From Chiloscyllium plagiosum (Eukaryota): DNA of 64,000 bases. The notes below the pieces were generated by a model. That model saw nothing but the letters and a program-made list of their open reading frames with translations, ran no database searches and was not told where the DNA came from. Of the stretch, positions 2,301 through 62,452 are shown piece after piece. Within the stretch, counting starts at the first letter, position 1, and each line of letters opens with the position of its first letter. The DNA lies in the NCBI RefSeq assembly GCF_004010195.1, contig NC_057760.1, forward strand, positions 426,408 to 490,407, written 5' to 3'. The position numbers and the translations under genes are program-made.

Positions 2301-3920
2301 ATAAAATCACCCCTCAGCCTCCAATGCTCCAGGGAAAACAGCCCCAGCCTATTCAGCCTCTATAGCTCTCAGACCCTCCAACCCTGGCCAACATCCTTGT
2401 AAATGTTTTCAGGTTGAACAACACTTTTCCTTTAGGGAGACCAGAACTGAACGCAGTATTCCAAAAGTGGCCTCTTGTTGACCTGGAAGGGCAGATGGAG
2501 GTGCCAGACGGAGATCTCCCCACTGGCAATGTAGCCCCCTCTCAGTACTGGTACTGGATGTGTGGGATAACAGGCTCCTGAGCAGGGGGGTCCTGTACCC
2601 GTCTAACTCAAAGAGGGGAATGGATAAAGAGAGAGTGCGGCCTACCGGCAATTAGAAGCAGGAGCAACAGTAGGCCATTCAGTCCCTCCAGCCTGCTGCA
2701 CTACTCGCTACGAATATGGCTCATCTGACATTCCTCCCACTTTCCTCCTCTTTCTCCCCGTAATCCTTGATTCCCCGACTCATCAAGAGTCAACACTCCT
2801 AAATATCCACACGGTCTCTGCACCCCATCACCCCACAGCTCTCTGTGGCAAGGTTCCATTCCCCCCTCGGGCGACTGTCTGTGTAGAGCTTACACATCCC
2901 CTCTCTTCCCCGTGTCTGCGTGGGTTCCCTCCGGGCGCTCCGGTTTCCTCCCACAGTCCAAAGATGTGCAGGTTAGGGTGGATTGGCCGTGCTAAATTGT
3001 CCCGTAGTGCCCAGGGATGTGCAGGTTAGGGTGGGTTGGCCATGCTAAATTGTCCCATAGTGCCCAGGGATGTGCAGGTGAGGGTGGGTTGGCTATGGGA
3101 ACTGCAGGGATAGGATCGGGGTCTGGGTCTGGGGTGGGATGTTCTTTGGGGAGGGCCGGTGTGGAATTGATGGGACGAAGGGTCTGCTTCCAAATTGTCC
3201 CATAGTGCCCAGGGATGTGCAGGTGAGGGTGGGTTGGCCATGGGAACTGCAGGGATAGGGTCGGGGTCTGGGTCTGGGTGGGATGTTCTTTGGGGAGGGC
3301 CGGTGTGGAATTGATGGGACGAAGGGTCTGCTTCCACACTGTCGGGATTCTACATTTCTGTGATGGTCTTCCAAAGATATCCAACGCTGTTCCCATGGCG
3401 TTGAGAGGGGAAAGATTGAAAAGGGACCTCAGGCAACATTTTCACGCAGAGGGTAGTTTGTGTATGGAACGGGCTGCGTGTATGGGCGAAGGTCGATACA
3501 ATGACAACATTTAACGGATGTTTGAAGAGGTACTTGGATGGGAATGGTTTCGAGCGTTTCGGGCCGAAAGCAGGAAAATTGGACCCGTTAGGTTTGGGAA
3601 TCCTGGTCGACATGGATGAGTTGGGCCGAAGGGTCTCCCTTCTGTGCTGTATGAGAGAAGGAATTCCTCTTCCACCTCAGTCGTACATTTATCCCGAGAC
3701 TGTTCCTGGACTCTTCCACAAAGGGAGAGAGAGAGACATCCTCTTAGCCTTGACCCTCAAGAATCCTCAGAGACGTCCTCTTAGCCTTGACCCTCAAGAA
3801 TCCTCAGAGACGTCCTCTTAGCCTCTTTCTCTTTCTTCGAAACTCCAGGGAGTAGAGGCCCAACCTATTCTAGCGTTTGCTCATCAGACTCAGTCGCTCC
3901 TCCTGTTCTTCTGTTCCCAG

Positions 3921-10648: not shown

Positions 10649-10713
10649 TCAATCCTCCGCTGGTGGCTGGAGAGCTGAATAGACCAGAATGTGGGGGTCA
10701 GACTCCTGCTTGC
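10649..10713 (-). CDS. APH1A: APH1A exon 7 (long-isoform C-terminus CKQESDPHILVYSALQPPAED*)
   Basis: tttcag|GC acceptor; stop TGA at 10649-10651. Resembles the mammalian APH1aL tail (..VYSAL..P.ED). Confidence 0.9.
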
Positions 10714-10868
10714 CTGAAACACAAACAACGGGCTCAAATGAGAGAGTGAGCGAGCGAGCGAGAGAGCTCGAGAGAGAGCGACAGACGAAACAAAGAAACC
10801 AAGTCACGAAAGGCATGGGGCACGCAGGGGTACTGAGAGGGGAAAGCACAAGCACCAGGTGTACCTAC

Positions 10869-10992
10869 ATGTGGCACAGCGCCAGATATTCCGCATTGAT
10901 CCCCCTGCCGTCGAAAAGGCCCATCCTCCCGTGGCGATCGTGATGGCGTAGATCAGAGGGAGGCTCCACTCGTACCGAGGATTCAAGAATGT
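10869..10992 (-). CDS. APH1A: APH1A exon 6 (124 nt; TFLNPRYEWSLPLIYAITIATGGWAFSTAGGSMRNIWRCAT)
   Basis: cccag|ACA acceptor and T|gtaggt donor; APH1 TM7 similarity. Confidence 0.93.
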
Positions 10993-11208
10993 CTGGGAAC
11001 AACGGCAGGAAGGAGGAGAGGGGTCAGTTGCAGGGCTGTAGCACGGAGGTAGTGAGGAACACTTCACGCGTTCGCCCACCTGAGGTCTTTGCCCACAGGA
11101 TGGCCAGTCCTCGTCCGCAGTGAGGTTTCACTTCCACTCCGGAAACACGGTCTCAATTGATTCAAGCGATTACATTCTTATTGAAGAGTTAGAACATGGC
11201 GGGCAGGT

Positions 11209-12250
11209 TGGGCAGCACGGTGGCTCAGTGGTTAGTGCTGCTGCCTCACAGCATCAGAGACCAGGGATGTGCAGGTTAGGGTGGATTGACCATGCTAAAT
11301 TGTCCCGTCGTGCCCAGGGATGTGCAGGATAGGGTGGATTGGCCATGCTAAATTGTCCTGCAGTGCCCAGGGATGTGCAGGTTAGGGTGGATTGGCCGTG
11401 CTAAATTGTCCCGTAGTGCCCAGGGATGTNNNNNNNNNNNNNNNNNNNNNNNNNNNNNNNNNNNNNNNNNNNNNNNNNNNNNNNNNNNNNNNNNNNNNNN
11501 NNNNNNNNNNNNNNNNNNNNNNNNNNNNNNNNNNNNNNNNNNNNNNNNNNNNNNNNNNNNNNNNNNNNNNNNNNNNNNNNNNNNNNNNNNNNNNNNNNNN
11601 NNNNNNNNNNNNNNNNNNNNNNNNNNNNNNNNNNNNNNNNNNNNNNNNNNNNNNNNNNNNNNNNNNNNNNNNNNNNNGCAGTGCCCAGGGATGTGCAGGT
11701 TAGGGTGGATTGGCCATGCTAAATTGTCCTGCAGTGCCCAGGGATGTGCAGGTTAGGGTGGATTGGCCATGCTAAATTGTCCCATTGTGTCCAGGGATGT
11801 GCAGGTTAGGGTGGATTGGCCATGCTAAATTGTCCTGCAGTGCCCAGAGATGTGCAGGTTAGGGGGGATTGGCCATGCTAAATCATCCCGTAGTTCCCAG
11901 GGGTGTGCAGGTTAGGGTGGATTGGACGTGCTAAATTGTCGCGTCATGCCCAGGGGTGTGCAGGTTAGGGTGGATTGGACATGCTAAATTGTCCCATAGT
12001 GTCCAGGGATGTGCAGGTTAGGGCGGATTGGACGTGCTAAATTGTCCCATAGTGTCCAGGGATTTGCAGGTTTGGGTGGGTTGGACGTGCTAAATTGTCC
12101 CATAGTGCCCAGGGATGTGCAGATTAGGTGCATTACTCAAGAGTAATTGTTGGATAATAGGGTAGGGGAATGGGTCTGGGTGGGTTAGTCTTCAGAGGGT
12201 CGGTGTGGACTTGTAGGGCTGAAGGGCCTGTTTCCACACTGTAGGGAATC
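11209..12250 (+). mobile_element. HE1-like SINE with a large internal 53-bp tandem expansion (spans a 248-N gap at 11430-11677)
   Basis: SINE head at about 11209, many gatgtgcaggttagggtggattggccatgctaaattgtcc units, and a SINE tail near 12240. Confidence 0.85.
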
Positions 12251-13625
12251 TGTGATTCGACATGGTCTGCTATTGCACATCCCATCAAAAAGCGACCTGG
12301 TGCCCTTTAAGGAGGGACACAGTTGTCCGTACTTGGAGGGGCCTACACGTGACTCCAGACCTACAGCCGGGTGCTCAACTCTTAACGCTTCACAGTTAAG
12401 GCACTGGCCCAGCCAATGAGGTGAGCAGATTAAAAATACTCGTCACGGGTTCAATTCCCGCCAGGGTACCTCCCAGTATAGGATTCAAATTCACCAAATG
12501 GATCCTAGAATTGGTCTCCGTGACAACCGTCATCGATAAAGCGAAAAAAAAAACACATTGAGGCGGTGCGGGGTCACTCATGGGAGAATGGCATCTGCCA
12601 TCCTCAACCCTCGGTCTGGGGAGGCCCACACGCGACTCCAGACCCCACACACAGAGACGGGCATCAGCAAAGCCCCCTAGGGGTCAAAGGGCAACAATGC
12701 CAGCGATGCCCCACCTCCTGAAAGAATTGAGCAAAATGCCGGGGACCTGTTTACTCGAACCCAACCACGATACCAGGGTGGCGGGACGGAGGGTGGGGTT
12801 GGGGATGTTTTGGGGGAGGGGGCCGTAAAAGGGGCCTAGTTTCGATAGTTCAGACTCTGGAGATGCTTGAGTCATCTCTGAGGGACAAGATGATTATTGC
12901 CTCGCAATCTGCCGGATTCACGAGGGAGAGTGGGTCGCCGGCGTCTTTATTGGCGGGAAACCAGCCCGGAACCAGGCACTAGAGCAATTCAACCCTTCAT
13001 CTTCTCCCCCTTCTCCCACAGTTTGTGGCCTTGAAGACCAAATTGTTCAGCACAGGCCCCGACGCCACTCGGAAGCAACCGTTAGTGAATAACTTTCGAA
13101 AAGCACAGCCCCTCAACGACAGAAAGATCAGAGCTTCCTTCTCATTGGGTGAGTGATGAAATGATCCAGTAGATTTCTGACCAGATCATTGGCTTGGGTT
13201 ACTGGGTAGCACCCTCCATTGGCAGGCTGTCACAAGTCTTCAAGTGCGAGGGCAGAGGGGGCATCAGTGATGAGGGACAGGTTCTGTCGGAGGGGGATTG
13301 TCCGTGCTAAATTGTCCCATAGTGCCCAGGGATGTGCAGGTTAGGGTGGATTGGCCATGCTCAATTGTCCCATAGTGCCCAGGGATGTGCAGGTTAGGGT
13401 GGATTGGCCATGCTAAATTGTCCCGTAGTGCCCAGGGATGTGCAGGTTAGGGTGGATTGGCCATGCTAAATTGTCCTGTAGTGCCCAGGGATGTGCAGGT
13501 TAGGGTGGATTGGCCGAACCGGGGTACCGTGGGGGGGGCGGGCGGGCAACGCTCTCTCTTATTCATGAGCCTCCTGCCTCTCAGCCCCTTGGTCAGGGAG
13601 TAGGGGGCGGGGGGTTAAGACTCAC

Positions 13626-13753
13626 CAGGCCAGACATCAGCGCGTGAGACACAACGACCACGGCCAGCAGCAGCCACCTCCTCTTCTCGCAGGCGTCAAA
13701 GAACACGACCCCCCAGGACGTGTGCAAGAGAACCACGGCCGAGGTCACGAAAG
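13626..13753 (-). CDS. APH1A: APH1A exon 5 (128 nt; AFVTSAVVLLHTSWGVVFFDACEKRRWLLLAVVVVSHALMSGL)
   Basis: cacag| acceptor and |gtgagt donor; contains the conserved LLHTxWGVVFFDAC motif and both conserved His residues. Confidence 0.95.
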
Positions 13754-14986
13754 CTGTGCAGAGACAGGAATCACCTGGGTGACAGAGCCTGCACACACAC
13801 GCATGCGTGTCAGAGAGCTCGTGCGCGGCAGTCACTTAAACCGACAAGAAGCGGATTCCCCTTCCATTCAACCTTCTTGGGGCTTAGCTTTAAGAGACCT
13901 GGAGACTGCAGCGCAAAAAACTTAGAACCTCTTCTCTTCTGTGATTCACTCTTGGAACGAGGAGGGTCAGCTCCATCCATCGCTCACTGTCCCCACAGGA
14001 CTGGGAAGAGGAGGCAGATGGAGTGCTGGCCGTTATGTCCAAGGGAATGGGGTTTTGCTAAAACTCGACAAGGCACGAGTTAGACCACAGCTGCAATTCT
14101 GTCGATAGCCTGGCACCCCCCCCCCCTCCACCCCAACCCTGTATCCAAGGAGAGCTAGACTGGGCCTTGGAGCCAGTCCAGAGAAGGCTCACTCAGCTGA
14201 CCCTGGGGATGGAGAGACTCCCTGTGAGGAGAGGTCGGGTAGGTTTGGGGCTTGTCTTTCTTGGAGTTTAGAAGAACAGGCTATCTGAGTGAAACACACA
14301 AGATTCTTCAGGGAATATTAACAGGGGAGGTGTGGGGAGATGGATTCCTCCCGTGTGGGAGAGTCAAGGACCACACAGGTCTGCAACACGGAAACAGGCC
14401 CTTTGGCCCAGTTTTCACAATTAATCTAGCCCTATTTGCCTCCAATTTGGTCCCTATCCCATCCACGTGCCTGAGTAAGGTGTTACTAAACTAACAAAAT
14501 TGTACTCACTTCCACCACGACCTCTGGCAGCCCGTCCCAGACACACCGCCCTCTGTGTGAGAAAACCTGCGCCTCTGCACCCTCTCCCCTCATAAAATCT
14601 ATGCCCTCTAGTCTTCGACTCCCCGACCCTGGGGAAAAGCTGTGGGCTTATCGCTGCCTCTCACAAACTTACAAACCTGTCAGGTCACCCCCTCAGTTTC
14701 CGACGCTACAGGGAGAACTAAATGTCCCAGTCTCTCCTTATGGCTCAAACCTTCCTGTCCACGTAGCATCCTTAATAATAGAGGGCGTCATCTCAGAATA
14801 TGGGGTCGCTGAAGACGGAGATAGGGAGGAATCTTTATCACTCCAAGGAGAGAGAGTGAGAGTGAGTGAGAGAGGTCGGGGCTGGCTCATTCAGCACACT
14901 CAAGACTAAGGTGGATCTTTAAAATCTGTGATCACATGACATTTGGTAACGATGCAAAGGCCTGGCCCCTCATTTCGCCAACTGAC

Positions 14987-15109
14987 CTGAGGTAAGGAAG
15001 AAGTAGGGAGAGTCTCCGTGAATGCCCACCGCGCCTGGCCCCAGCGAGTCCGACAGTACATTGATGACAGAGAAGGCACCACTGGCAACGCCGAAGGCTA
15101 GACCCGAAA
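14987..15109 (-). CDS. APH1A: APH1A exon 4 (123 nt; VSGLAFGVASGAFSVINVLSDSLGPGAVGIHGDSPYFFLTS)
   Basis: ctcacag| acceptor and |gtcagt donor; contains the GxxxGxxxG TM4 motif and GPGxVGIHGDS. Confidence 0.95.
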
Positions 15110-15747
15110 CTGTGAGGGAAGAGACAGGCAGCGTGAGGGGAGGAATCGAAAGGACGTTCAGCAAACTCTATTCTCCTCCCCAGACGGGTAACGGAGAAGA
15201 ATTGGCCGAACCTCGCCAGCTCGTTTTAAATTGGACGCAAAACGCTGCGGATATCAAAAACAAACAAATGCAGGAGGTCTGGACGTGTTTGGGGAGAGAC
15301 AGAGAGAGAGAGAGAAAGAGCGCGCAGGCGTGAGAGGGAGGGGGAAGAGGACGTGAGAGGGAAAGGGCACGGGCGCGAGAGAAAGGGCGCGACAGAGAGA
15401 GAGAAAGAGTGAGAGCGCGCGAGAAAGCGAGAGTGAGAGCAAGACAGGACTGGAGGAGCAGCTCCTCACCGTTCCCTTTCACTCCACTTCTGGCAGCGAG
15501 CACAATCAGATCGATCAGAAACTTGTGGCCAAGCACATACAAAGGGCCCAATGGCCTACTCCTAATTCATACATGCGTTTTGGGTTGGGGGAGGCGGGGG
15601 GGGTGAAGGTGATCGATTCTCTCAATAGCCCAGTGCATATTGAGCAATCGGTATCAAATTCGCGATTGGACGGGACAACGGTGCCAGGAAGGGGAAAGGT
15701 TTGCCCGACGGAACATCCACGTGGCGGGCTGAAGCCGGTTCTTTTAC

Positions 15748-15821
15748 CATACGCCATCTGCCCGATGGAGATGGGCGACCTCCCATCTTCGCTTATCGCC
15801 GCGAGGCCCTGGTCAGCTTTC
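15748..15821 (-). CDS. APH1A: APH1A exon 3 (74 nt; KADQGLAAISEDGRSPISIGQMAY)
   Basis: cgcag| acceptor and |gtaaaa donor; phases are compatible with the flanking exons. Confidence 0.95.
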
Positions 15822-17083
15822 CTGCGGGTGGGACAGAGATATACAAAGGTCACAGGGGTCGCTGGGTACCACAGCTGACACATAATCCCGCACGCGGTCA
15901 GTCGGGCTCTGGACAGGGAACAGGAAGACCATGAAACCCTTGGGATTCCTCCCAGCTGCACTCACCCAGTTATCCTTACCAATAACACGCCTTCTGAAAC
16001 AACACAGTCAGACAACATGGAAACAGACCCTTCGGTCCAACTCGTCCATGCTAAATGGACATCCTAAATTCAGCTTGTTTCATTTGGCCAGCATTTGGCC
16101 CGTACCCCAGTCCCGATGAAAGGTCCTGCCTGAAATGTTCTCTCTCCTGAATTTGTGATGCTGCTTCATCTGTTGTGCTTTTTCCAGCTCCATATTCTAT
16201 CGACTCTGACTTTCCACCATTTGCAATCCTCACGATCTCCATATCCCTCCAAACCCTTCCTGTTCATGTCCCCCATCCAGATGCCTTTTAAATGGTGTCA
16301 TTGTACCAGCCTCCACCACCTCCTCTGGCAGCTCGTTCCATACACGTACCACCCTTTGCGTGAAAAAGCTGGAGAAAGTCTTTTTCTGCAGGGTAGGGGA
16401 GCCCAAGTCTAGAGGGCACAGATTTAGCGTGAGAGGGGAAAGATTTGAAAGGGACCCAAGGGGCAACGTTTTTCACCCAGAGGGTGGTGCGTGTGTAGAA
16501 TGAACTGCCAGAGGAAGTGGTGGAGGTTGGTACAATTTAAAAGACATCGTGATGGAGACATGAATAGGAAGGGTTTAGAGGGATGTGGGCCAAGTGCTGG
16601 CAAATGGGATGAGATTAGGTTGGGATATCTGGTTGGCATGGTCGAGTTGGACCGAAGGGTTTTGTTTCCGTGCTGCACATCTCTATGACTCTATGTTGGC
16701 GGCAATATTGATCAGGACGACAGAGACACACACACAGACTCTGGATGGTCCTGGCTCCCCCAGTGGAAGTGCATTTGTGTTGTTCTGTAGCGCACAGAAA
16801 GACCATGGGTGTACATGGCGGACAGTAAAGTCAGTTGCACTGCGTGGGGGTGGGGGTGAAACAGAGGATATGCATTGGACAACAATAATGGAGGGGGAAA
16901 CCTGCATTTACATTCATCAGACCTCAACCCCAGCACCCTCAGCTCATCCTATCCTGCACAGACAGACACACAGACAGGCTCCCTCTATTCCCGATCTACA
17001 GGATCTTTCACACACGGTGACAGTGAAGTCAGCCCGGATGGTTTCCCAGGGAGCGACGTGTCCTCTCTGGCCAGCGAGCTTAC

Positions 17084-17254
17084 TTGAGCAGCTTGTAGTA
17101 TGCGAACCGAAAGGCCTCTTGAAGCAAGACGGAGATCCCGGCTCCCATCATCAGCAGGCCGTGCTGAAGCCCAGCGTTCTCCTTGTTGCTGAGCTGTACT
17201 GCCACAAACCACAGCAGCGAGGAGAGGAGCAGTGATACCAGCCAGAAGAACGAG
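17084..17254 (-). CDS. APH1A: APH1A exon 2 (171 nt; SFFWLVSLLLSSLLWF...VLLQEAFRFAYYKLLK)
   Basis: ccacag| acceptor and AA|gtaagc donor; APH1 TM2-TM3 similarity. Confidence 0.95.
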
Positions 17255-18743
17255 CTGTGGGAGAGGGTTAGAAAGCGGTCACCGTTAGTCCAACACACGG
17301 CCACAGAAAGCCGTGCACACTCGCTACGCCGAGAGCTCTCTCGAGTTAAGAGAATGCCGAATTCAAAATATGTTCGGACATGGTCCCTGCCCCGATCGGC
17401 GACCCACATTTTAAAAAGTGCAGGCGCTTCCCAATGGATTAGAAAGCAGCTCAGGGCAGATTGCAATTTGAACAGCATTGTCGGGGAGCTCTGATTGTAG
17501 TGCCCTCACACTCCGACAGTGCCTTTCTTAACCCCAGTGCCCCCCTCCCAAAGCGCCTGGAGGCCAAAGAGCTACTTCTGAAGGGCAATGCAGGAAATAC
17601 AGCAGCCCATTTGTGCAAAGCCAGATCCCACAAAGACGCAAACCACCTGCTGTCGCAGAGACGTTGGTCGAGGGGTAAATAGTGGTCCCTGGCGCACTGG
17701 GAGAAATGTCGCCCCCCCACTGTGTTTCCACTGGAGGCTCTGTGAGCTTTAACCTCCATGCAAGCATTGGCCTTGGTTTAAGATGTTGGTCACAAAAACA
17801 TCCCCCCCCCCCCGGGTAGCTGCCCGCCCCCGCACTGGGAGCATCAGCCCAGACACTCGATCAAAAAAAAATCAAACCCCATAACATTCTGACTCAAAGG
17901 GCTCATCCCTCACAGCGAGTCGGTAGGTGGAAACGTACGCCAAGAAAATAAAAATCCTCAGTATTTTTTAAAATTTACAATTATTATTGTATAATTCTTG
18001 AAAATGTGTGTCACGTATAGACAGGAGGGTTAAGGAGGCATATAGCAGGCATGCCTTCATTGCTCAGACCTTCGAGTACAGGAGTTGGGGTTGTACAGGA
18101 TGTTGGCGAGGCCTCGTCTGGAGTAGCGTGCACAGCTCTGGCCGTGCTATTATAGGGAGGGTATTATTAAACTGGAGAGGGTTCAGAAGAGATTTACCAA
18201 GATGTTGCAGGGAGTAGAGGGTTTGAACTACAAGGACAGGCTGCGACGTCTTTCACTGGTGCATTAGAGGGTGAGGGGTGACCTTATAGAGGTTTATAAA
18301 ATCACGACGGGCATGGATAAGATGAATGGTGAGTGTCGATTCCCTAGGGCAGGGGATTTCAAGACTGCGGGCACATTCGTAAAGTGAGAGGAGAGAGATT
18401 TAAAAAAAGACACAGGGGAAAATTATTTTTAAAAAAAAAACACAGAGGGTGGTTCATGTGTAGAATGACCTTCCTGAGGAAGTGGAGGATGTGGGTACAC
18501 TGACAACATTTAAAAGACATTTGGATAAGTACATGAATAGGAAAGGTTTGGAGGGATATGGGCCAGGTGCAGGCAGGTGGGACTGGTTTAGTTTGGGGAT
18601 TATGGTCACATGGACCTACTGAAACTGTGCTGTATGACCCGATGACATTGTCCTCCCTTCAAGGCCAAATATATTCTTCCTGAGATATGATGCCCAGATC
18701 TCCTTACCAAGTAACAAGTCAAACCAGGGTTTTATATACCTGC

Positions 18744-18855
18744 GAGGAGAAAGTGAGGACTGCAGATGCTGGAGGGCTTATGCCCGAAACGTCGATTCTC
18801 CTGTTCCCTGGATGCTGCCTGACCTGCTGCGCTTCTCCAGCAACACATTTTCAGC
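18744..18855. mobile_element. Short inverted Penelope-like pLTR fragment with a 14-bp TSD
   Basis: ttttatatacctgc at 18730-18743 and 18856-18869; partial hammerhead gggcttatgcccgaaacgtc. Confidence 0.75.
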
Positions 18856-20930
18856 TTTTATATACCTGCAGCAGAACTTCTGCGCCCTTATACTCCAATC
18901 CTCTAGATTAATAGGCCAGCCTTCCATTAGCCAGAAGGATTATTTTCTGCATCTGTCTGTGGCGTTTCTAAGATTTGTGCACCTGAGCTCCCAGGTCTCT
19001 TTGGGTACCCACTGTACTGAACTTCACACCATCTGGAGATTATCGGGGGGTTTTTTTCTGAATTTCTGATACGGAAGTGACGACACTATGCTTCGAACAC
19101 AGAGGTGCGCGCTATCCACTGTTGTTGCGCAGAAACCTTTCCAGAAAGGCAAAGAAGTGGTCGATTTGACGTTACTCTGGTTTCCATTTCTTGACCTTTA
19201 CCTCTATGTGGTCCGTACCCCTCTACTCCCGGCTTATTCATGTATCTGTCATGTCTCTGAAAAGTTGCCATTGTATCTGTCTCCCTCTGGCAGCGTATTC
19301 CATTCACTTACCACCCTCCATGTAGGACAACTTACCTCTCACATCTCCTTTAAACTTTCCCGCCTTTTACCTTAAATCTGTGTCTCCTACTCGTTGACGT
19401 TTTTACCCTGGGGGTTAAAAAAAAACACTGTCTGTCCATCCTATTCACGTCTGAACCACTGGATTACTCGTCCCTCGGCATTACCTCATCTTTCACTGCA
19501 CAAAAAACCGAGAAACAGCCTACAGCATCAGGCGCTACAGGCCCTGACAGTATTCAGACAATAATACTGAATAGGTTGGGACTATTTTGCCTGGAACGTC
19601 AGAAGCCAAGGGCTTATGCAGATGTTTATGAGGAACATGGATGGAGTGAACAGCCAAAGTCTTTTTCCCAGGGTAGGGGAGTCCAAAACTAGAGGGGCAC
19701 AGGGGTAAGGTGAGAGGGGAAAGATTTAAAAGGGACTTAAGGGACAGTTTTTTTTCCCCACGCAGAGGGTGGTGCGTGTATGGAATGAGCTGCCAGAAGA
19801 AGTGGTGGAGGCTGTTACAATGACAACATTTAAGAGGCATTTGGATGGGTATATGAATAGGAAGGGTTTGGAGGGATATGGGTCAGGTGCTGGCAGGTGG
19901 GACTAGATGGGGTTGGAATAGCTGGTCGGCATGGACGGGTTGGACCGAAGGGTCTGTTTCCGTGCTGTACGTCTCTATGACTCTATGGTTGGCATGAACG
20001 AGCTGGACCGAAGGGACTGTTTCTGTGGTGTATATCTCTGTTACTCGACTGATGACCAGTGTCCTAGACAAGTTGTCCCAGTGCAGCTACAATCCTGGCA
20101 TTTAATACTTGGATCAGCAGCTCAATATAAGCTGGTCTGAAAGTTATGGTATAGCCTGATCTCCTGATTTTGGAGCACTCGAATACCTGCCCTCAAATGC
20201 CCAGCTGCGTCCCCTCAGCTCCTCTGGTACACGGCAGCATCTCATCTTGTTAATAGGGTCCAATCCCAGCACATCAGACAAAGCCAAACAGCACAGAAAT
20301 GGAGACAACCAGTCCACACAGACCAGTTTAATGATATCCTCCCTCTAGCAGGGCGACCAGAACTGGATACTACACTGCAGAAGAAATCTCATACATCCAC
20401 AATATGACATCTCACCTGTCATACTCAAAAGGTCTGAGGAATAAAGGCAAGCTTGCTAAACGCCTTCCCAGCCACCATACAGTATGTGATGCAAACTTCA
20501 AAGAATTACATTCTAGATTTAGCTCGAAGCTGGGGTGGGGCAGGGGAGGGTCAAACAGAGTGCAAATGCATGACACAGCCATCACCTTACTGATGAGCAG
20601 CGAAGTCTCGATGGGCCAGATAGCTTATTTCTCATGTTCTTACCACAGAGCAATTGGCGAGGCCTTAACGCAAGGTAAACATGCCGCAGGTGAGGTGGCA
20701 AAGGTTGAGAAGGAAGGCACCTTCACAGCAGCCTCAGCCAACACAAGAGGCCGAGCCACTCTGCTGGCATTGCTCAGGCAAACAAACATTCAGACACTAG
20801 AGTGGAAATCGCTGACAGAAAAACCTCAGCAGGGCTGGCTGCAGCTGCAGGCAGAAATCACAGTCAATATTTCAGATCCAGTCACTCTTCCTCAGAACAA
20901 GTAATCAGGTGGGCCACAATCACACCGAAT

Positions 20931-21532
20931 AATTTCCCACAGCCAATCCACCCTAACCTGCACATCCCTGGGCACTATGGGACAATTTAGCATGGCCATT
21001 CCACCCTAACCTGCACATCCCTGGGCACTATGAGACAATTTAGCATGGCCAATCCACCCTAACCTGCACATCCCTGGGCACTAGGAGACAATTTAGCATG
21101 GCCATTTCACCCTAACCTGCACATCCCTGGGCACTAGGAGACAATTTAGCATGGCCATTCCATCCTAACCTACACACCCTGGGCACTATGAGACAATTTA
21201 GCATGGCCAATCCACCCTAACCTGCACATCCCTGGGCACTAGGAGACAATTTAGCATGGCCATTTCACCCTAACCTGCACATCCCTGGGCACTAGGAGAC
21301 AATTTAGCATGGCCATTCCATCCTAACCTACACACCCCTGGGCACTATGAGACAATTTAGCACGGCCATTCCACCCTAACCTGCACANNCACACCCCTGG
21401 GCACTATGAGACAATTTAGCATGGCCATTCCACCCTAACCTGCACACCCCTGGGCACTATGAGACAATTTAGCATGGCCAATCCACCCTAACCTGCACAT
21501 CCCTGGACACTACGGTGCAATTTAGCATGGCC
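20931..21532 (-). repeat. SINE-derived 53-bp minisatellite, about 11 copies
   Basis: The unit ccaccctaacctgcacatccctgggcactatgagacaatttagcatggcca is repeated. Confidence 0.9.
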
Positions 21533-21817
21533 AGGGATGTGCAGGCTAGGTGAGTTAGCCATGGAAAATGCATGGTTACGGGGGATGCTCTTTGGAGGGT
21601 CAGGGTAGACTCAATGGGCTTCCATACTTGGGAATTGTATGAATGTCCTCATCTTCTGTGGTCTTACAGGAGTAACCAACCCCCCGCCACAAAAAAAAAG
21701 ACATCATGACCCCACGGTACAGACGGTTTCAAAAATAAAGCAGGGAACGTAGCGGTTGTCTGTTCAGCCTACTGCAGTTGAAAAGCCCCTTGAGTACAAT
21801 TGACCAGGCTCATGGGA

Positions 21818-22038
21818 GGAGAAAGTGAGGACTGCAGATGCTGGAGATCAGAGCTGAAAATGTGTTGCTGGAAAAGCGCAGCAGGTCAGGCAGCATCCAA
21901 GGAGCAGGCGAATCGACGTTTCGGGCATGAGCCCTTCTTCAGCGGCTCATGAAGAAGGGCGCATGCCCGAAACTTAGATTCTCCTGCTCCCTGGATGCTG
22001 CCTGACCTGCTGCGCTTTTCCAGCAACACATTTTCAGC
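21818..22038. mobile_element. Fold-back Penelope-like mini-element with hammerhead motif and a 14-bp TSD
   Basis: 89-bp inverted arms at 21853-21941 and 21950-22038; TSD ccaggctcatggga at 21804-21817 and 22039-22052. Confidence 0.8.
21915..21942 (-). ncRNA. Minimal hammerhead ribozyme motif (CUGAAGA-A-GGGC-UCAU-GCCC-GAAA-C-GUC)
   Basis: Intact CUGANGA and GAAA boxes, 4-bp helix II, palindromic ACGT in place of helix III, GUC triplet. Confidence 0.65.
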
Positions 22039-22714
22039 CCAGGCTCATGGGACTAACCAATGCCCCATCACGGAGCAGAATCACCCCGATGTGGACGGGG
22101 ACAGGATCGTCTGGAGGCTGCTGTCCATGCGATTTTCCTGCACCTCGGATGCTGTGCTTTTCCAGCGCCACACTCCCGACCGCTGTCCGCACAGCCTACT
22201 ACAGTCGAACAGCCCGTGGGGCACAACCGCCCGGGCGTACTGGATCCAGGAAGGGCATCAGGGCACCGCAGAGCTGAGGGTCTCACAAGGTAAAGCACGG
22301 GGTGGCATTGAGACTGCTATCCATCCAGCCTCCTGCAGTCGAATAGCCCAGTCAGACGTGATCTGGTGGGGCAGATTATAAATACTAGGGTCGGTGCTGG
22401 GGTTCGGGGAAAGGTGGGTAACCACCTTTTAAAACAAAAAGGAGAGAAGAAAAAAAAAAGTGATGACAGAGGATTGGACAGAAATGTTTTTTTTTGTCGG
22501 CCAAACACATGCCCCGCCCCCCATCCACGGGCGACGTTCCCTTTAAATCCTGGGGCAACGGCTCGCGGTGACTTTAATGATTGACAGCGGCGGCGGATGC
22601 GGGCGGTGCCGGTGAAGCGGGAGTGCGGTCGGGCAGGTTTAGTTTTTAAATTTTATAAACGAACGGAGGGTTTTGTTTTCCTCCTTTTTTATTTTTTTTA
22701 AAAAGAAAACTCAC

Positions 22715-22827
22715 CCGGCGACCAGGATGATCACCCGCAGCGGCTCACCGGCCACGGTGAACAGCAGCAGCGCGAACGCCGGCCCGAAGGCGATGAAGGC
22801 GCAGCCGAAGAAGACCGCCGCGCTCAT
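22715..22827 (-). CDS. APH1A: APH1A exon 1 coding part, proximal copy (MSAAVFFGCAFIAFGPAFALLLFTVAGEPLRVIILVAG)
   Basis: gccATG at 22827 and GG|gtgagt donor; 113 nt. The seven exons sum to 798 nt, i.e. 265 aa plus stop. Confidence 0.93.
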
Positions 22828-23511
22828 GGCGGGGAGGAGGGGCGAGGCGACCGCCTCAGGCCTTAAACCCGGTTTAAAAGTCCCACCGCCATCGGCCAGC
22901 CCTCCTCCTGCATCCCCCGCCCTTTTCCGACACTCCCGAGGGGCCGCCGCTGAGGGGAGGTCGCAGGCCCAACGGCCTGTCGCGGCGGGGGCACGCCGCG
23001 GCCAATCGGCGTCGGGCCAGGGGGTGGGGCCGCGGGGGGGGTTTGACGGGCGGTACGGCCAATCGGCTGTCGTGGCTGGGCGGGCGAAATGCTGATCGAC
23101 GGGCGGCTCGGCCATTCGGATTTATGTCCCCGACGGCCGGGCCGGTCGACGTCATGGGGAGGCGGGCCGCAGGGTGATCGACGGGTCGCCCCTCCAGTAG
23201 GAGTTTGACAGCCCGTCCGCATCGAGGACAGGCGGGTCGGGAGTTGATTGACGGAAGACTCGGCCAGTCGGATGTCGACAGCCGTTTTCTGCGTAGCCAG
23301 GGCGAGAATTGATTGACGTGCCAGTCGGATGTTGACGCTTCTTGACCGACTTGCCACACTACGTCGAGGGTTTGGTGGCTGATTGACAGGCCGCTCCACC
23401 AATTGGATATCACCACTCCCTTGAAGGCCTGACCACCTGATTGACAGGCCGCTCGACCACTGGGATGTCTGTATTCCAGTTGGTTTGCCCATCGGTGGGG
23501 CGGATGAAGAG

Positions 23512-23660
23512 GTAAAAACAATGACTGCAGATGCTGGAAACCAGATTCTGGATTAGTGGTGCTGGAAGAGCACAGCAATTCAGGCAGCATTCGAGGACAG
23601 GCAAAATTGACGTTTTGGGCAAAAGCCCTTCATCAGGAATAAAGGCAGAGAGCCTGAAGC
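23512..23660. mobile_element. Penelope-like terminal fragment between the two APH1A exon-1 copies
   Basis: Starts gtaaaaacaatgactgcagatgctgg, the same terminus as the copy at 53386-53474. A degenerate hammerhead lies on - at about 23609-23636. Confidence 0.75.
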
Positions 23661-23814
23661 GCTCGCGGTGACTTTAATGATTGACAGCGGCGGCGGATGC
23701 GGGCGGTGCCGGTGAAGCGGGAGTGCGGTCGGGCAGGTTTAGTTTTTAAATTTTATAAACGAACGGAGGGTTTTGTTTTCCTCCTTTTTTATTTTTTTTA
23801 AAAAGAAAACTCAC

Positions 23815-23927
23815 CCGGCGACCAGGATGATCACCCGCAGCGGCTCACCGGCCACGGTGAACAGCAGCAGCGCGAACGCCGGCCCGAAGGCGATGAAGGC
23901 GCAGCCGAAGAAGACCGCCGCGCTCAT
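23815..23927 (-). CDS. APH1A: APH1A exon 1 coding part, distal identical duplicate
   Basis: Exact copy of 22715-22827, offset by 1100 nt, with an intact ATG and donor. Confidence 0.8.
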
Positions 23928-25639
23928 GGCGGGGAGGAGGGGCGAGGCGACCGCCTCAGGCCTTAAACCCGGTTTAAAAGTCCCACCGCCATCGGCCAGC
24001 CCTCCTCCTGCATCCCCCGCCCTTTTCCGACACTCCCGAGGGGCCGCCGCTGAGGGGAGGTCGCAGGCCCAACGGCCTGTCGCGGCGGGGGCACGCCGCG
24101 GCCAATCGGCGTCGGGCCAGGGGGTGGGGCCGCGGGGGGGGTTTGACGGGCGGTACGGCCAATCGGCTGTCGTGGCCGGGCGGGCGAAATGCTGATCGAC
24201 GGGCGGCTCGGCCATTCGGATTTATGTCCCCGACGGCCGGGCCGGTCGACGTCATGGGGAGGCGGGCCGTAGGGTGATCGACGGGTCGCCCCTCCAGTAG
24301 GAGTTTGACAGCCCGTCCGCATCGAGGATAGGCGGGTCGGGAGCTGATTGACGGAAGACTCGGCCAGTCGGATGTCGACAGCCGTTTTTTGCGTAGTCGG
24401 GGCGAGAACTGATTGACGTGCCAGTCGGATGTTGACGCTTCTTGACCGCCTTTCCACACTACGTCGAGGGTTTGGTGGCTGATTGACTGGCCGCTCCACC
24501 AATTGGATATCACCACTCCCTTGAAGGCCTGACCACCTGATTGACAGGCCGCTCGACCAGTGGGATGTCTGTATTCCAGTTGGTTTGCCCATCCGTGGGG
24601 CGGATGAAGAGTCTGCTCATCCAATCGGATGCTGGTATTCTGAACGGCCTCAGCAGTCGGCAGGGGTGGACGGATGATTGACAGTCGCCAATCGAGCTTG
24701 GGATAAGGTCCGGGTAATGGGCGTGGATTACTCGTGTGACTGACAGGCGAACTGTCCAATACGGTGGCGGTGTGTCTTTTGGAACCATTCGGCGTTAAGG
24801 TCAGGGTGATTGATGTTTCCATTGACGAGTCAGATGTCGTCTCTGATGGATTAAGCAATCAACGACTCGGATAGGCGTGTGTGGGAAGGAATGACGTTAA
24901 TTTCGTCCAATCGGATGCCGACAGTTTTGACGCCTTATTCAATCGACACGGAGGGAAGGACGGCCAGGTGGCGATTTGTGTGATTGACGTCGTGTTTGGG
25001 CAGGTGGGCGTGGTCTCATGCTGACCGACATGCGAGATAACCAATGAAATGCTGGAACCCTCTCGACGAATCGCATTCTGGGCAAATGGGTGGAAAGCAG
25101 TTCAGTTCGTCGGTTACTGCGCGTGCGCACGGCGCGCAAGGCAACATGGGAGTTGTAGTCTTCCCTGTCTCTTGCTGCAGAGTCAAAAGAGAAAGCTAAA
25201 TGCTGAAACTCTTGAAATAAAAACAGAAGTTGCTGGTCACTGTTGTCGAGTAGAAAGCGGCCACTCAGCCCATTGGGTTTGCATTTGTTCTCCTGCATGA
25301 GCATTATGATTTAGTGCCAATCTCCTGGCCTGCAAACCTATACATTGTCTCAATTGAAATAACTTTCTTGTTGCTTTCTTTATTGTCTCAATTGAAATTG
25401 CCTTTAATTGCACCATATTCCTTTCAACTCAGCTCAACCACTGGCTGAGTTAAATTTTGTTTACTGCTATGCTTGTGCAACACGCCTTAAAACTGTGCTC
25501 TCTGGTTCTTGATTGATAAGAGCTGTTAAGAATAGAGAGTGGTGCTGGAAAAGCACAGCAGGTCAGGCAGCATCTAAGGAGCAGGAGAATCGACTGGCTG
25601 ATTCCTGGTGAAGCCCATTCCTGATGTAGGGCTTTTGCC

Positions 25640-26725
25640 TATCTTATACGTTGCAGGCAGGGATGCCCGGAGGCATGGTGCATTGGGGAAACCGAGCAAA
25701 GGCTACGACAACGGATGAATGGGCACCGCACAACGATCAACAGACAGGAGGGTGCCCTCCCAGTTGGGGAACACTTCAGTGGTCCAGGACATTCAGCCTC
25801 GGACCTTCGGGTGACCATCCTCCAAGGGGGACTTCGGGACAGGCAGCAGAGGAAAGTGGCCGAGCAGAGGCTGATAGCTAAGTTCGGTACCCATAGGGAG
25901 GGCCTCAACCGGGACCTTGGGTTCATGTCACATTACAGGTGATCACCATTGCACTACACACACACACACACACACTCCTACACACACTCCTACACACACT
26001 CCTACACACACTCTCACATACACACGGACATAGATACACACAGATGTGCACACAGACACCCACACACACCCTTATAGACACACAGACTCCCACACATGCA
26101 CCCCCTCACAGACTTAAGACACTCTGCACTCACTATACACACACACACACTTTCTCACTCACAACCCCCACCCCAGACAGACACACACACACAGACAGAC
26201 AGATAAAGACCCACATGCACACATATTTTGTGTGGTGAATTTTTTTGGTGCTTTCAGAGTTACATTGCACTTTGCTCAAAAACCACATACATTCATGTAG
26301 AACTCTGAGCTCAAAAACTGCATGAATTTATGTAAAATTCTGTCATCTCACTTTTTAGCTTGGAATCAATCTAAACATCAGGTCATAGACAGAGAACACA
26401 GGGGGCTAACACCTTCAACACATTGTCTAGCTATCACCGTTGTTAACAGCTAACCCGAGAATGCAACTTTAAAAAAAAGGGTTTTGTGATTTACACATGA
26501 AAGAAGTGAAACTATCACTGTATTCTAACAGATGAAAGACTTCACAGACAATCAGTTCTTCAATGTATAATTTCAGTTACATCACACTGCAAATTTTTGC
26601 TATAAATTCTGTGTTACGATCGAGCCCTCCACAATCACATGATGAAGGAGTGTCGCTCCGAAAGCTAGTGTGCTTCCAATTAAACCTGTTGGAATATAAC
26701 CTGGTGTTGTGTGATTTTTAACTTT
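25640..26725 (+). mobile_element. 5'-truncated Penelope-like element: GIY-YIG endonuclease C-terminus plus 3'UTR/pLTR
   Basis: YLIRC...WCIGETEQRLRQRMNGHR...VGEHF...EQRLIAKFGT..GLNRD* (stop at 25940-25942). CA-rich UTR; hammerhead-like tgatgaaggagtgtcgctccgaaagcta at about 26640. Confidence 0.88.
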
Positions 26726-27298
26726 GTGCACTTTTAATAGACAGTCTTGCTTCACTCGAGTAAATATCAAGCCAAATCTGTTCTCTGGAGGCTGTATATT
26801 TCAGAGGTTGTGGAAACATACAAGATTCTTTAAGGGACTTGATCTGAAGAAATGTTTCCCCACTCCATGCAGGACCAGAAAGCATAATCACCGAGTAAAA
26901 GGCTCACCATTCAAGGCAGATTTAATATTGTGTATCTGTGGAATTTTTTACCACAGAGGCTGGGTCACCAGGTATATTCATGGCAGAGATAGACAAATTT
27001 TCAATTATGAGGGAGATAAAGGTTATGGGGGAAAAGCAGGAGAGTTGGATTCAGGATTATCAAATCAGTCATAATCTTGCTAAATGGTACAGCATTATGA
27101 GGGGCTAAATGGCCGCCTTCTGCTCCTATCCCTTATGGTAAATATTTCCTTGTCTTTTCCCTCTGCTTCTTTGACCAGTATTCTTGGACTCCCAAACCTC
27201 CCAGCACACATTCGTGGGAGGAACCCAGCCATCCTCTTCTGCTCTGGGTCACCACATGACTCCCACTCCCAGATCAATGCCTGTTGACACTAGTGCTG

Positions 27299-32371: not shown

Positions 32372-33460
32372 AGCCCAAGCTTGCAAAAGTCACCACCAAA
32401 AACTGGTGGTGTGGTCAACATCGAAGAAGGTTACCTCCGATTACCACGGGATTTTGATCAGACGGGCCAATGGGCTGAGGAGTGGCAGGCGGAGTTTGAT
32501 TTAGGTAAATGCGAGGTGCTGCATTTTGGAAAGGGAAATTAGGGCAGGACTTAATGGTAAGGTCCTAGGGAGTGCTGCCGAACAAAGAGATCTTGGAGTG
32601 CAGGTTCATAGCTCCTTGGAAGCTGCAGGTAGATAGAATAGTGAAGGTGGCGTTTGGTATGCTTGCCTTCAGTGAACTGAGTATAGGTGCTGGGAGATCA
32701 TGTACAGAACATTGGTCAGGCCACTTTTGGAATACTGCGTTCAACTCTGGTCTCCCTGCTATAAGAAGGATGTTGTGAAACTTGAAAGGGTTCAGAAAAG
32801 ATTTCCAAGGATGTTGCTGGGGCTGGAGGGTTTGAGCTATAGGGAGAGGCTGAGGCTATTTTCCCTGGAGGGTCGGAGGCTGAAGGGTGACCTTTATAGA
32901 GGTTTATAAAATCATGAGGGGCATGGATAGGGTGCACAGTCAAGGTATTTTCCCAGGGTAGGGTCATAGAGGTCATAGGTCTAAGATGAGAGCAGAAAGA
33001 TTTAAAAGGGGCTCGAGGGGTAACTTTATCACACATGGTGGAGCAGATATGGATTGAGCTGCCAGAGGAAGTGGTGGAAGCTAGCACAATTCCAACATTA
33101 AAAGGCATCTGGATGGGGACATGAATAAGAAGGGTTGGGAGGGATATGGGCAAAATGCTGGCAAATGGGACTAGATGAATTTAGTTCAGAAAAGATTTAC
33201 AAGGATATTGCCAGGTTTGGAGGATTTGAGCTATAGGGAGAGGCTGAACAGGCTGGGGCTGTTTTCCCTGGAGCGTCGGAGGCTGAGGGGTGACCTTATA
33301 GAGGTTTACAAAATTATNNNNNNNNNNNNNNNNNNNNNNNNNNNNNNNNNNNNNNNNNNNNNNNNNNNNNNNNNNNNNNNNNNNNNNGTTGGGATATCTG
33401 GTCGGCATGGACGGGTTGGACCGAAGGGTCTGTTTCTGTGCTGTACATCCCTATGACTCT
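32372..33460 (+). mobile_element. CR1-type LINE 3' fragments (two abutting; 70-N gap at 33318-33387)
   Basis: YRTLVRPLLEYCVQLWSP and [30 protein letters not shown] motifs. Confidence 0.9.
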
Positions 33461-40660: not shown

Positions 40661-41314
40661 AGCGTTGCCATTCGCTTGGTCGCCGCGTCTGGCTTGCCCT
40701 GACTCCCCGCCCTGTACCTCAAACGCCAATGCCCCCTCACCTCCTACTCTCGCTTTCCCCGCTCTCTAACCCCCCTCCCCACCCCTCCCCGTGTCAAAGG
40801 TCACCTGCGTTGCCAAGTGGATCAGTGGGAGCTGGCTGGGGTTGTTGGCTGCGGAGCTGAGCAGGTCACCGGCTGCTGGATCTGTTTCGATAGCGCGGTC
40901 ATTTCTTCCCTTGGTTGTCGTTCATCTTCCACCCTCGTCTCAAACCTTCTTACGGGAGTGTGTCGACCCTGCCCTCCCACTCCACGTTCCCAGCAGGGGA
41001 ATGGGGAGGGTGGGTGGTGCTTTCGGGAAAGTCCCAGGGATGTGGATGGAAGGAAGGGAGACGAGATTTGAAAGGGTACAGTTCCGTGAAGAATTCCAGT
41101 CAGTCCATTGGCGCCGTTTCTCACTGAGTGGACTCTGCAGCGCTCCCCCCACATGAATTGATTTGGTTCTGAACATCTGTCTTCTTCCTCACACCCACCC
41201 ATTCCTGCTCTCCTTGGTGCAGAGACAGAATCTGAAGACGGAAAAATGGTGTGCCACCTTTTGGAATCCAGTTAACAGGCAGCTAGTAACAAACCGACCG
41301 CCAGTAACCTGCAA

Positions 41315-42385
41315 CATCAGCCCCTTGACTTACTGCCCAGATAGATGCCACCATCAGCCCCTTGACTTACTGCCCAGATAGACGCCACCATCAGCCCCTT
41401 GACTTACTGCCCAGATAGATGCCACCATTAGATCCTTGACTTACTGCCCAGATAGATGCCAGTGTCAGCCCCTTGACTTACTGCCCAGATAGACCCCACC
41501 ATTAGACCCTTGACTTACTGCCCAAATAGACGCCACCATCAGACCCTTGACTTACTGCCCAGATAGACGCCACCATCAGCCCCTTGACTTACTGCCTAGA
41601 TAGATGCCAGTGTCAGCCCCTTAACTTACTGCCCAGATAGATGCCAGTATCAGCCCCTTGACTTACTGCCCAGGTAGCTGCCACCATCAGACCATTGACT
41701 TACTGCCCAGACTGATGTCACCATCAGCCCCTTGACTTACTGCCCAGATAGACGCCACCATCAGTCCCTTGACTTACTGCCTAGATAGACGCCACCATCA
41801 GTCCCTTGACTTACTGCCCAGATAGACGCCACCATCAGCCCCTTGATTTACTGCGCAGATAGACGCCACCATCATCCCCTTGACTTACTGCCCAGATAGA
41901 CGTCACCATCAGCCCCTTGACTTACTGCCCAGATAGATGCCACCGTCAACCCCTTGACTTACTGCCCAGACTGACGTCACCATCATCCCCTTGACTTACT
42001 GCCCAGATAGACGTCACCATCATCCCCTTGACTTACTGCCCAGATAGACGTCACCATCAGCCCCTTGACTTACTGCCCAGATAGACACCATCATGAGCCC
42101 CTTGACTTACTGCCCAGATAGATTCCAGTGTCAGTCCCTTGACATACTGCCCAGATAGATGCCACCGTCAGCCCCTTGACTTACTGCCCAGATACACGCA
42201 CCATTAAACCCTTGACTTACTGCCCAGATACACGCACCATCAGACCCTTGACTTACTGCCCAGACTGACGTCACCATCAGCCCCTTGACTTACTGCCCAG
42301 ATAGACCCCACCATCAGCCCCTTGACTTACTGCCCAGATAGATGCCAGTGTCAGCCCCTTAACTTACTGCCCAGATAGATACCAC
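41315..42385. repeat. 37-bp minisatellite, about 29 copies
   Basis: Unit catcagccccttgacttactgcccagatagatgccac; period 37 (41315, 41352, ...). Confidence 0.95.
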
Positions 42386-43454
42386 ACCTGACAGCCAGAA
42401 CTTCAAACCGTCTCCAGCCCCTCTTGTCCCCTGTGCCAACAGCCCAGAGTCCGGTCCGGTGAGGTCTTCCAAAGTCGCTTTGTGTTTCAAGGGTCCACAG
42501 TGATTGCGGGGCGCCAGAGACCCAGTGGCTTGTTGGGTATAAACGGACTCTCTCCCAGCCCGATACACTGTGAGTGGATTATCGAGACCACCCCGTTTCC
42601 CCACCTTTCTCAACCTGCTCCTGCCAAAGCCAGTCTCTCGTTCTGCACGAGAGAACCCAGTGCCATTTCAACAGTCAGTATTGAGATGGTTAGCCAAGCC
42701 CACGCTCCCTCTGCTCTGCCCCCTGTTTGAGATGCAATTAGAGTCATAGAGATGTGCAGCACAGAAACAGACCCTTCGGTCCAACTCGTCCCGTGCCGAC
42801 CAGATATCCCTACCCAATCTAGTCCCATTTGCCAACACCTTGCCCATATCCCTCCAAACCCATCCTATTCTTGTCCCCATCCAGATGTCTTTTAAATGCT
42901 GTAATTGTACCAGCTTTCACCACATCCTCTGCGTGAAAAAGTTACCCCTCAGGTCCCTTTTAAATCTTTCCCCTCTCACCCTAAACCGATGCCCTCTAGT
43001 TCTGGACTCCCCCACCCCTTGTCTATTTACCCAATCGATGCCCCTCATGATTTTATAAACTTCTATCAGGTCACCCCTCTGCCTCTGACGCTCCAGGGAA
43101 AACCTACTAATGGAACCAGGTCTTCCAAACTGGACTGGACAGGAGCTGATCGCTTAACAGCACAGCCCCTACTGGGCAGACTTCACATTGCAGCTGTCCC
43201 TCTCATTGTCGCACTGGCATCCCGAATTCTGCAGGAGGTTCAGGGTGTTGCGGGCGCTGCTCAGCCTGGCCGGGAGGTTGACAGGACCTACCCCATTGCT
43301 TCTGGGTAAGTCGGTGGCTGCTGCCGTTCCTCTGAGCTTGCTGTGTGGCCAAAATGAAGGAAAGGATGGGGCTCCCAGTCTGAACCTTTCTGCACCCAAA
43401 CCTTGCTGAAGCACGGGTGCAAGTTGGGACAAATAATCAAAGAATCCCTCCAGT

Positions 43455-52694: not shown

Positions 52695-53385
52695 CACTAG
52701 GATGTAGAGTAACTAAATTGCTGGTTTATATCAAAGATTCTAAACAAAACTCATACTCAATAGGAAAAGAACTTGTAATTTAATAAGCTGAGTGGGATAT
52801 TCACGTAATAGAACAATCCTGATACATTTTCATGTATACCACTCTGAGCAGATTGCAGTTTATGAAGCTCATTTCCCCCTTCTTAACTGTTGCGGAATGT
52901 GAATGGCTCACTACCCTTACAGACTAGGAAAAAAAACTGACATAGGAAGTTTGAAGATGTGTGAGAGAGAGAAAATATTCTTCTGTAAACTACATACATA
53001 AGGGGGGAGGGCGGGGGGAGAAGAGGGGAAGGAGAGAGAGAGCGCGAGAGAGGTGGGGGCAAAAGAGAATGGAAGCTGGTGAAAAATTAACCCTTTATGG
53101 TCCGATTTGAGCAAATCACAGGCTTGCCGTAGATTGAATGTTTCTGCGATGTTCCTAGGAATGCAAGATCTGGGAATGTCATGAATTTAATTTAAAATTA
53201 TCATTGATTCCCCGAATGCAAAAGGAAAAGCCGTTTTGCAAGACAATGATATTGAACATGTTAGCTGAGCAAGGTTACCTCATGACCTTTTTGCTAGCCT
53301 CTGGTTATGATGTACTCACCAAAGCAAACTGACCATTTGGCCTGGCTGGGTCAAGGGTTCCCATTTTGATGTGCATGTAGCCTGA

Positions 53386-53474
53386 AGCTCCTCGGATGCT
53401 GCCTGAACTGCTGTGCTCTTCCAGCACCATTGATCCAGAATCTGGTTTCCAGCATCTGCAGTCATTGTTTTTAC
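53386..53474. mobile_element. Penelope-like terminal fragment with a 12-bp TSD
   Basis: catgtagcctga at 53374-53385 and 53475-53486. Confidence 0.75.
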
Positions 53475-61462: not shown

Positions 61463-62452
61463 CTGCAGATAAAACAAATGAGTGAGAGATTACAGACCTT
61501 CAGTCCCACACCCATCCCATACAACCAGCAGAGACCTTTAGATAACAGTAGTAGTACTTGCAAACCAAACAAAAAAAAAACACCAGGGTGAGAATTCATC
61601 TCGATTGCTACCCCCACTCCCGCACCAGCACACTCACAGTGAACAGGCTGGCCAACTGCTCACTGCTCCACCTGCCTGCACCTCTAACGGCAGAAGTGGA
61701 CATCTACTTGGAGTAACAGTATCTTTACCACAGCAAAAAGCTTCAAATGCCTGTCCTTTCTTGGGCAATTAACCACTCTGTGGGGCAGAGAGGTTTGAGC
61801 AACACAGGCTCAGCTTCAGAGGTGGAGGAAAGGATGCAAGCAGGTCACCCTCATCTCACAGCAAGAGGAAGAATGTGGATCTCTGCCATTTTAAACTTAA
61901 ATTATCCATTTGCCAGGCTTGTGGTAGATCACTTTCTGCACGGTCAGTGCCCCACCCCACCCCACCCCCAATACCAGGCCATTAATTGGGCATAGTGACA
62001 ATTACTTTTAGAGAGGAGAGCAGCTGTTTGCCAGAATTCAAAGGGTACCTTTTGAACATCATGGCCCAGACTGAGCCATCCATCCCGCAACACAGCAGAA
62101 GCAAGGCTTTTGAATAATTCTGAGCAGATAGAACTGCATTATCACATTTTTATGGGCTAGGAACATCCCAAATGATTTCATTATGACTGTACTAGTTCTG
62201 AATTGTGCAGTCACAGGCTGTGACTGAACAATGTCAGTACTGTAAAACTGGACAATGCAAATCCATGTGGCCAACCTACTGACAATGAACACTCTCACTG
62301 GCAAACCCCTTGAGGGGACAAGTCGTGGTAGTGCCATTTGGCCATTAATCCAGAGGCCTCAGTCTAATGATCTGAAGACAAGCTCAAATCCCACCCATGT
62401 GGAAAGCTGTGGAATTCAAATTTAACAAGTAAAACCTGGAATCTGAATCTGT

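Follow-up and report, generated by a model that had tools for sequence, protein, structure and literature searches.

Does the APH1A gene of this shark have two promoters and two first exons, or does the assembly merely present it so? In the window (the whole 64-kb stretch of DNA that was analysed), self-BLAST finds direct repeats of 951 nt at 22561-23511 and 23661-24611 (98.63% identity, 13 mismatches, no gaps), which adjoin, exactly at both ends, a spacer of exactly 149 nt of Penelope-like sequence (23512-23660), all as the first-pass annotation had described. The pair is the longest match between distinct places returned by the self-BLAST and, among the matches listed, the only one above 98%.

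Layout of the repeat and the APH1A gene

The features of the locus, and of the element copy with which it was compared, are:

10652-17505, minus strand: downstream exons 2-7 of APH1A, single copy, at about 17.3-10.7 kb; located as frames, with approximate exon ends
22561-23511: copy 1 of the repeat, made up of intron 1 sequence (154 nt), exon 1 and some 510 nt that lie upstream of the likely start; connected to the remainder of APH1A
22715-22827, minus strand: APH1A coding exon 1, copy 1; 113 nt of coding sequence plus donor, the whole exon likely extending to about 22998
23510-23512: 3' junction, the element terminus; 1-2 nt common with the target
23512-23660, minus strand: 5'-truncated Penelope-like end, 149 nt, single arm, without a short target duplication
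23601-23640, minus strand: minimal hammerhead-like motif, with an altered G at the first position of the core GAAA (23616)
23660-23661: 5' junction, from the truncated element to the start of copy 2; probably at most about 1 nt shared
23661-24611: copy 2 of the repeat, with 13 substitutions within the last 435 nt; connected to the upstream flank
23815-23927, minus strand: APH1A coding exon 1, copy 2; identical 113 nt of coding sequence, donor intact
53374-53486, plus strand: sister copy of the same subfamily (element 53386-53474), the comparison case

Exon 1 has a Pfam Aph-1 match (E value 2e-11) in both copies, and its best PDB match is APH-1A (53.3 bits), by a small margin over APH-1B (49 bits). 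Pfam PF06105 (Aph-1) was found in 5 of the 8 pieces submitted; it was found in 3 of the 6 downstream frames, the other three being assigned by eye. By homology, the gene probably belongs to the Aph-1 family and is nearest to APH-1A. The X1 contig covers 22715-22998 at a depth of 308, versus 30 in the intron, which suggests that exon 1 extends to about 22998, its start being beyond what contigs can fix. Contigs that end at the donor suggest that X1 and X7 are RNA-like runs. Both first exons are predicted to splice to exon 2 and to yield the same protein and mRNA, with at most dosage or promoter interference altered.

The octamer TGATTGAC, which we take to resemble a Pbx/Prep-type site, occurs 12 times in the 64-kb window (both strands), always on the plus strand and within 22578-24981 (7 times discounting the duplicate), among many CCAAT boxes. 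A CpG island reaches about 25200 and has the single GGGAGTTGTAGT motif (25148-25159), presumably of the ZNF143 type, at its far end. The upstream 1.4 kb is covered continuously by contigs of X1 and X7, which are RNA-like in appearance, and a divergent or upstream transcript is therefore possible.

The 13 substitutions are distributed as first reported: the first 516 nt of the repeat are identical between the copies, the first mismatch is at offset 517, and all 13 are in the remaining 435 nt. A terminal mismatch-free run of 516 nt has a probability of about 6e-5 if 13 changes fall uniformly (200,000 draws), and so their uneven spread is real. Methylation decay of one copy was rejected, only 2 of the 13 changes being CpG transitions and CpG o/e being above 1 in both copies (1.0-1.1 in copy 1). 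There is no N between 21390 and 33317, and so none within 1.1 kb of the repeat (the nearest are at 21388-21389 and 33318-33387); this rules out an assembly gap at the insert junctions, other than a gap since closed. A 27-nt word from the repeat end had no matches in the metagenome scan. The window also contains a 153-nt tandem duplication (96.7%) in a SINE-like repeat (3047-3343), a 37-nt minisatellite of more than 24 units (41201-42497), and, in several places, arrays of 53-nt and 44-nt units derived from repeat ends.

The Penelope-like insert and its target site

The first 86 nt of the insert match 53474-53389 (95.3%), starting at the same terminal base as the sister copy, which is flanked by an exact 12-nt target duplication (53374-53385 and 53475-53486), again as first annotated. 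This subfamily terminus occurs only twice in 64 kb, and arms of the element are spaced a few kb apart across the window. Contigs with unrelated flanks before 23510/23511 number 238+116 in X2, 29+16 in X1 and 156 in X7; that hundreds of contigs end here with unrelated flanks identifies the position as the insertion terminus of the family.

The hammerhead of the family has CUGAUGA, a stem II and a GAAAC-type core, with an intact copy at 62520; the definition of a minimal motif was that of PMC4209133. With the first G of its core changed, the insert's hammerhead is likely inactive, as judged from sequence. At 23591, 23608 and 23616 the insert has letters other than those of the family majority, the changes at 23608 and 23616 being CpG transitions, and at 23578, where the family is split, it has the minority letter, for a total of 3-4 departures in 149 sites. 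It may therefore be not very young, or have been copied from an aged source. Rfam found no hammerhead in 21500-27000, the sole match there being mir-3127 at chance level (E value 0.62), and no significant structure emerged when the hammerhead regions were folded (z of -0.7 to -1.8), which has little weight for a motif presumed to act as a dimer. The insert has no ORF. A 94-codon fragment beside an element piece (25658-25939) resembles a terminal part of a GIY-YIG endonuclease, with a score of 0.95 to GIY-YIG clusters (atlas score) and no Pfam match.

From the base that follows the hammerhead CUGAUGA, it is 118 nt to the terminus of the insert. This distance matches the start of reverse transcription by a Penelope-like protein of anole, which is placed at 111-118 nt of an ORF opening with stem II (PMC11167929). 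The same source reports that the anole protein nicks and extends both strands, that an active ribozyme is unnecessary for insertion, and that the enzyme favours AT-rich DNA; the target here is GC-rich.

No exact direct repeat of at least 6 nt flanks the insert. When six loci were tested for flanking repeats, three neighbouring element copies had exact repeats of 10-14 nt (12, 16 and 18 nt if one mismatch is permitted) and two older element pieces had no notable repeat; random positions gave at least 10 nt in 2 of 150 cases. A further element copy near 18.75 kb has a 14-nt repeat by eye. The insert thus lacks the short repeat of its neighbours (12-18 nt), and the 951-nt repeat occupies the place of the usual short target duplication. 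Fold-back or single-arm Penelope-like insertions at 21804-22052, 62435-62661 and 18731-18870 have target duplications of 14, 10-18 and 14 nt, respectively. The 7 nt that end copy 1 (23505-23511) and those that straddle the truncated end of the element (23655-23661) match at 6 of 7 nt, a similarity noticed post hoc; the cDNA end may have been able to close an ordinary 7-nt duplication, or the match may be due to chance.

Alleles and copy number in other samples

None of the 24 runs listed holds more than 0.69 of the sampled window words, and therefore no run is clearly from the source animal; as listed, the 24 include neither long reads nor a run designated as RNA. Four (X1, X2, X7 and X21) were compared over 22190-23660, which comprises the left flank, one copy and the insert. 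X1, X2 and X7 are three samples from three studies, used as assembled contigs (84/100 of X2 covered); X21 is a raw single-cell run, about 2/100 sampled, in which exon 1 has a depth of about 1 and no junction read was found, a result that is uninformative at such depth.

Contigs of X1, X2 and X7 traverse 22560|22561 unbroken (that of X2 starts at 22151, inside an element piece), and one contig in each reaches exactly 23511 and then departs for 976, 924 and 965 letters, respectively. If continued at 24612, these contigs would end at 25587 (X1), 25535 (X2) and 25576 (X7), all of which fall in the next element copy (25529-25594), where such contigs break. The lengths thus point to a single-copy path, the right flank beyond 23511 being deduced from them. 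The insert junctions are absent from the listed contigs of X1, X2 and X7, and the joint from 23660 to 22561 is absent among the joints listed (10 + 12). Depth over 23440-23489 equals that of the single contig in each of the three runs; in X2, mean depth at the start of copy 1 (22540-22589) is 14.6 versus 9.21 around it, an unexplained extra, as of an additional short piece that is unlisted. The word share of X2 (0.67, against a ceiling of 0.74-0.79 for a single-copy path) is consistent with one copy and does not separate the hypotheses.

SPAdes-like simplification of an assembly graph can delete short links into high-copy repeats. The contigs used here come from Logan, which is described as applying simplification of this kind (10.1101/2024.07.30.605881). 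An empty single-copy site thus appears to exist in all three of the other samples, with the qualification that graph cleaning may hide a duplication, and the view that two first exons belong to the gene of the species is to the same extent unsupported. The word unfixed, as used below, rests on absence from simplified contigs, in which depth is not copy number.

At the 13 sites that distinguish the copies, the contigs of X1, X2 and X7 combine letters of copy 1 with letters of copy 2 as mosaics. Both letters are present among the other runs at 6 of the 13 (23289, 23297, 23299, 23309, 23349 and 23353), while the copy 2 letters at 23170, 23229, 23244 and 23388, and the copy 1 letters at 23077 and 23460, are in no run that covers them; site 23494 is unlisted and was left out, and it probably accounts for the single unlisted difference of each long contig. 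In the 393 nt that all of them cover, there is 1 difference between copy 1 and X2 and there are 5 between copy 2 and X7, versus 11 between the two copies and 7 between X2 and X7. The two copies look like two alleles.

Homogenisation or selection acting on the exon half had been proposed for its identity between the copies. Of the substitutions listed among the runs, none falls in the opening 472 nt of the repeat and 10 fall in the 479 nt that follow (Fisher P 0.002; X7 lacks coverage of 22801-23100, and one of its differences, in 22424-22744, is unlisted), and there are 11 substitution sites among the runs in 371 nt of left flank. Since the exon half is invariant also in single-copy contigs of other samples (0 in 472 nt), no process specific to duplicates is needed, and ordinary conservation among alleles suffices.

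A plain giant target duplication, made on one chromatid and followed by drift, predicts differences private to the copies, and so it is insufficient where 6 of 13 are shared with other samples. The differences do not have the pattern of a one-chromatid origin, a signal that later exchange between alleles or switching during assembly could have erased.

Origin of the duplication

The best explanation is a real, unfixed, retroelement-bridged tandem duplication whose copies derive from different haplotypes, to which we assign a probability of about one half. The element would have nicked the site that is now 23511|24612 and primed reverse transcription there; the cDNA, only 149 nt long, would then have been joined to an end or template at a distance of 951 nt instead of 12-18 nt, with the result that the intervening stretch was copied twice. 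The copies could have become allele-like if the far end lay on the homologous chromosome, if part of one copy was exchanged in a subsequent crossover with a single-copy allele, or if the assembler took the letters of one copy from the single-copy allele of a heterozygote; these three routes can hardly be ranked. An insertion-associated kilobase duplication, as first proposed, thus stands as the likeliest single reading, in view of the family terminus, the 5' truncation and the lack of a short target duplication, but not in its plain one-chromatid version. Against it, no contig or read among those listed spans a junction, the target is GC-rich, unlike the DNA favoured by the anole enzyme, X2 has its unexplained extra depth, and allele-like differences would follow from a merge of haplotypes without extra steps.

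Duplications of this kind have precedents in other retroelements. For the LINE Dualen-4b_cRei of Chlamydomonas, flanking duplications with a median of 900 bp are reported at more than half of the insertions (PMC9977147); these insertions resemble the present case in having duplicated host sequence on both sides of a retroelement, of similar length (951 nt here). According to the same account, Dualen-4b is a LINE with two endonucleases and its insertions are de novo, whereas here there is a single case of a Penelope-like scrap, with neighbours that have duplications of 12-18 nt and with copies that are allele-like. Tandem duplications bridged by L1 are described in tumours and cell lines (PMC7058536, PMC11702581), and account for 14 of 152 rearrangements in one report (10.1101/2024.08.27.596794); they share with this locus a short truncated cDNA at the junction of a direct tandem duplication, and in the published model the cDNA joins an end on the sister chromatid. 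The L1 cases described there are somatic and human, with sized examples of tens of kb to Mb, unlike the duplication considered here, which is putatively germ-line, 1 kb in length, without a poly(A) tail and possibly between homologues.

Penelope-like elements themselves offer a less direct parallel. Endonuclease-bearing insertions are reported to have target duplications of 8-10 bp (PMC3846280). The insert shares with ordinary Penelope-like insertions the minimal hammerhead, a terminus about 118 nt past it and 5' truncation (PMC3846280, PMC8557442, PMC4209133, PMC11167929); the available text of these four sources describes no target duplication near 1 kb. No kilobase target duplication by a Penelope element was found in a literature search that lay largely outside subscription papers and supplements.

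The strongest competitor, which we consider unlikely but serious, is that the two alleles of a heterozygote were placed in tandem (a heterotype false duplication) and are joined by the element scrap, itself probably a real insertion on one allele. This alternative, mentioned in the first-pass annotation as merged haplotypes, gained weight from the allele-like copies and the single copies elsewhere and still ranks below a real duplication. Each copy is nearer to the contig of another sample than to its twin, one copy is present in 3 of 3 other samples, and diversity between samples in the flank is 1-2%; N gaps of 248, 2, 70, 500 and 4 in the window suggest a scaffolded assembly of short-read type. 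Heterotype false duplications are stated to be among the commonest assembly errors, and likewise consist of two allele-like tandem copies that can mimic an exon duplication (PMC8081667). In that account, tandem false duplications have a gap separating their copies; the join in this locus has none, and an element end bearing a canonical terminus fills it. The 5' junction shares about 1 nt, probably too little for an assembler to use as overlap, which favours a real duplication; an artefact would need a chimeric read or a blunt join at this point, and the element is not followed by an ordinary short target duplication and the right flank.

An old, fixed duplication with paralogous differences, which is how the locus was first read, is improbable. 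It supposes that the popping of bubbles or the removal of links collapsed the loop in the other contigs, and is compatible with the Logan procedure of SPAdes-like simplification (10.1101/2024.07.30.605881), with letter switches in the contigs that follow clusters of 31-mer bubbles, with the extra depth of X2 at 22540-22589, and with an insert that departs at 3-4 of 149 family sites, an age compatible with 1.4% between the copies. Both junction links would, however, have to vanish in three runs, yet short, low-depth element contigs survive there. Further evidence against collapse is that depth over 23440-23489 equals the single contig's in each run, that the same choice was made in the runs at 4 of 6 bubbles (a P of about 0.04 under random picks), and that X1 and X2 share changes at 23033 and 23057 that are absent from both copies.

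The least probable origin is unequal crossover between two independent insertions from one subfamily, located at opposite ends of the 951-nt stretch and on different haplotypes, with a hybrid element as the product: it would give two allelic copies with no visible short target duplication in one step, in a window with element arms every few kb, but it needs two insertions in the same orientation from a subfamily with only two such termini in 64 kb, and both sites are empty in the contigs of X1, X2 and X7.

The preferred reading, a real retroelement-bridged duplication, can be extended to the bolder proposal that a Penelope-like cDNA bridged homologues out of register in the germ line. This would be an unequal crossover made by a retroelement, which doubled the CpG-island promoter and exon 1 of APH1A and left a segregating two-promoter allele, and Penelope elements of sharks would be a routine source of kilobase duplications. 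So extended, the proposal is speculative and rather unlikely to hold as a whole.

No protein change is predicted whether the duplication is real or artefactual. If it is an artefact, gapless joins filled by a repeat can mimic promoter duplications. If it is real, retroelement-bridged kilobase duplication would be extended from LINEs to Penelope-like elements and to the vertebrate germ line, the allele-like copies would record, as is seldom seen, which chromosome the end of a cDNA joins, and the locus would offer a natural allele with which to test the effect of a second promoter and first exon on the dosage of a gamma-secretase subunit.
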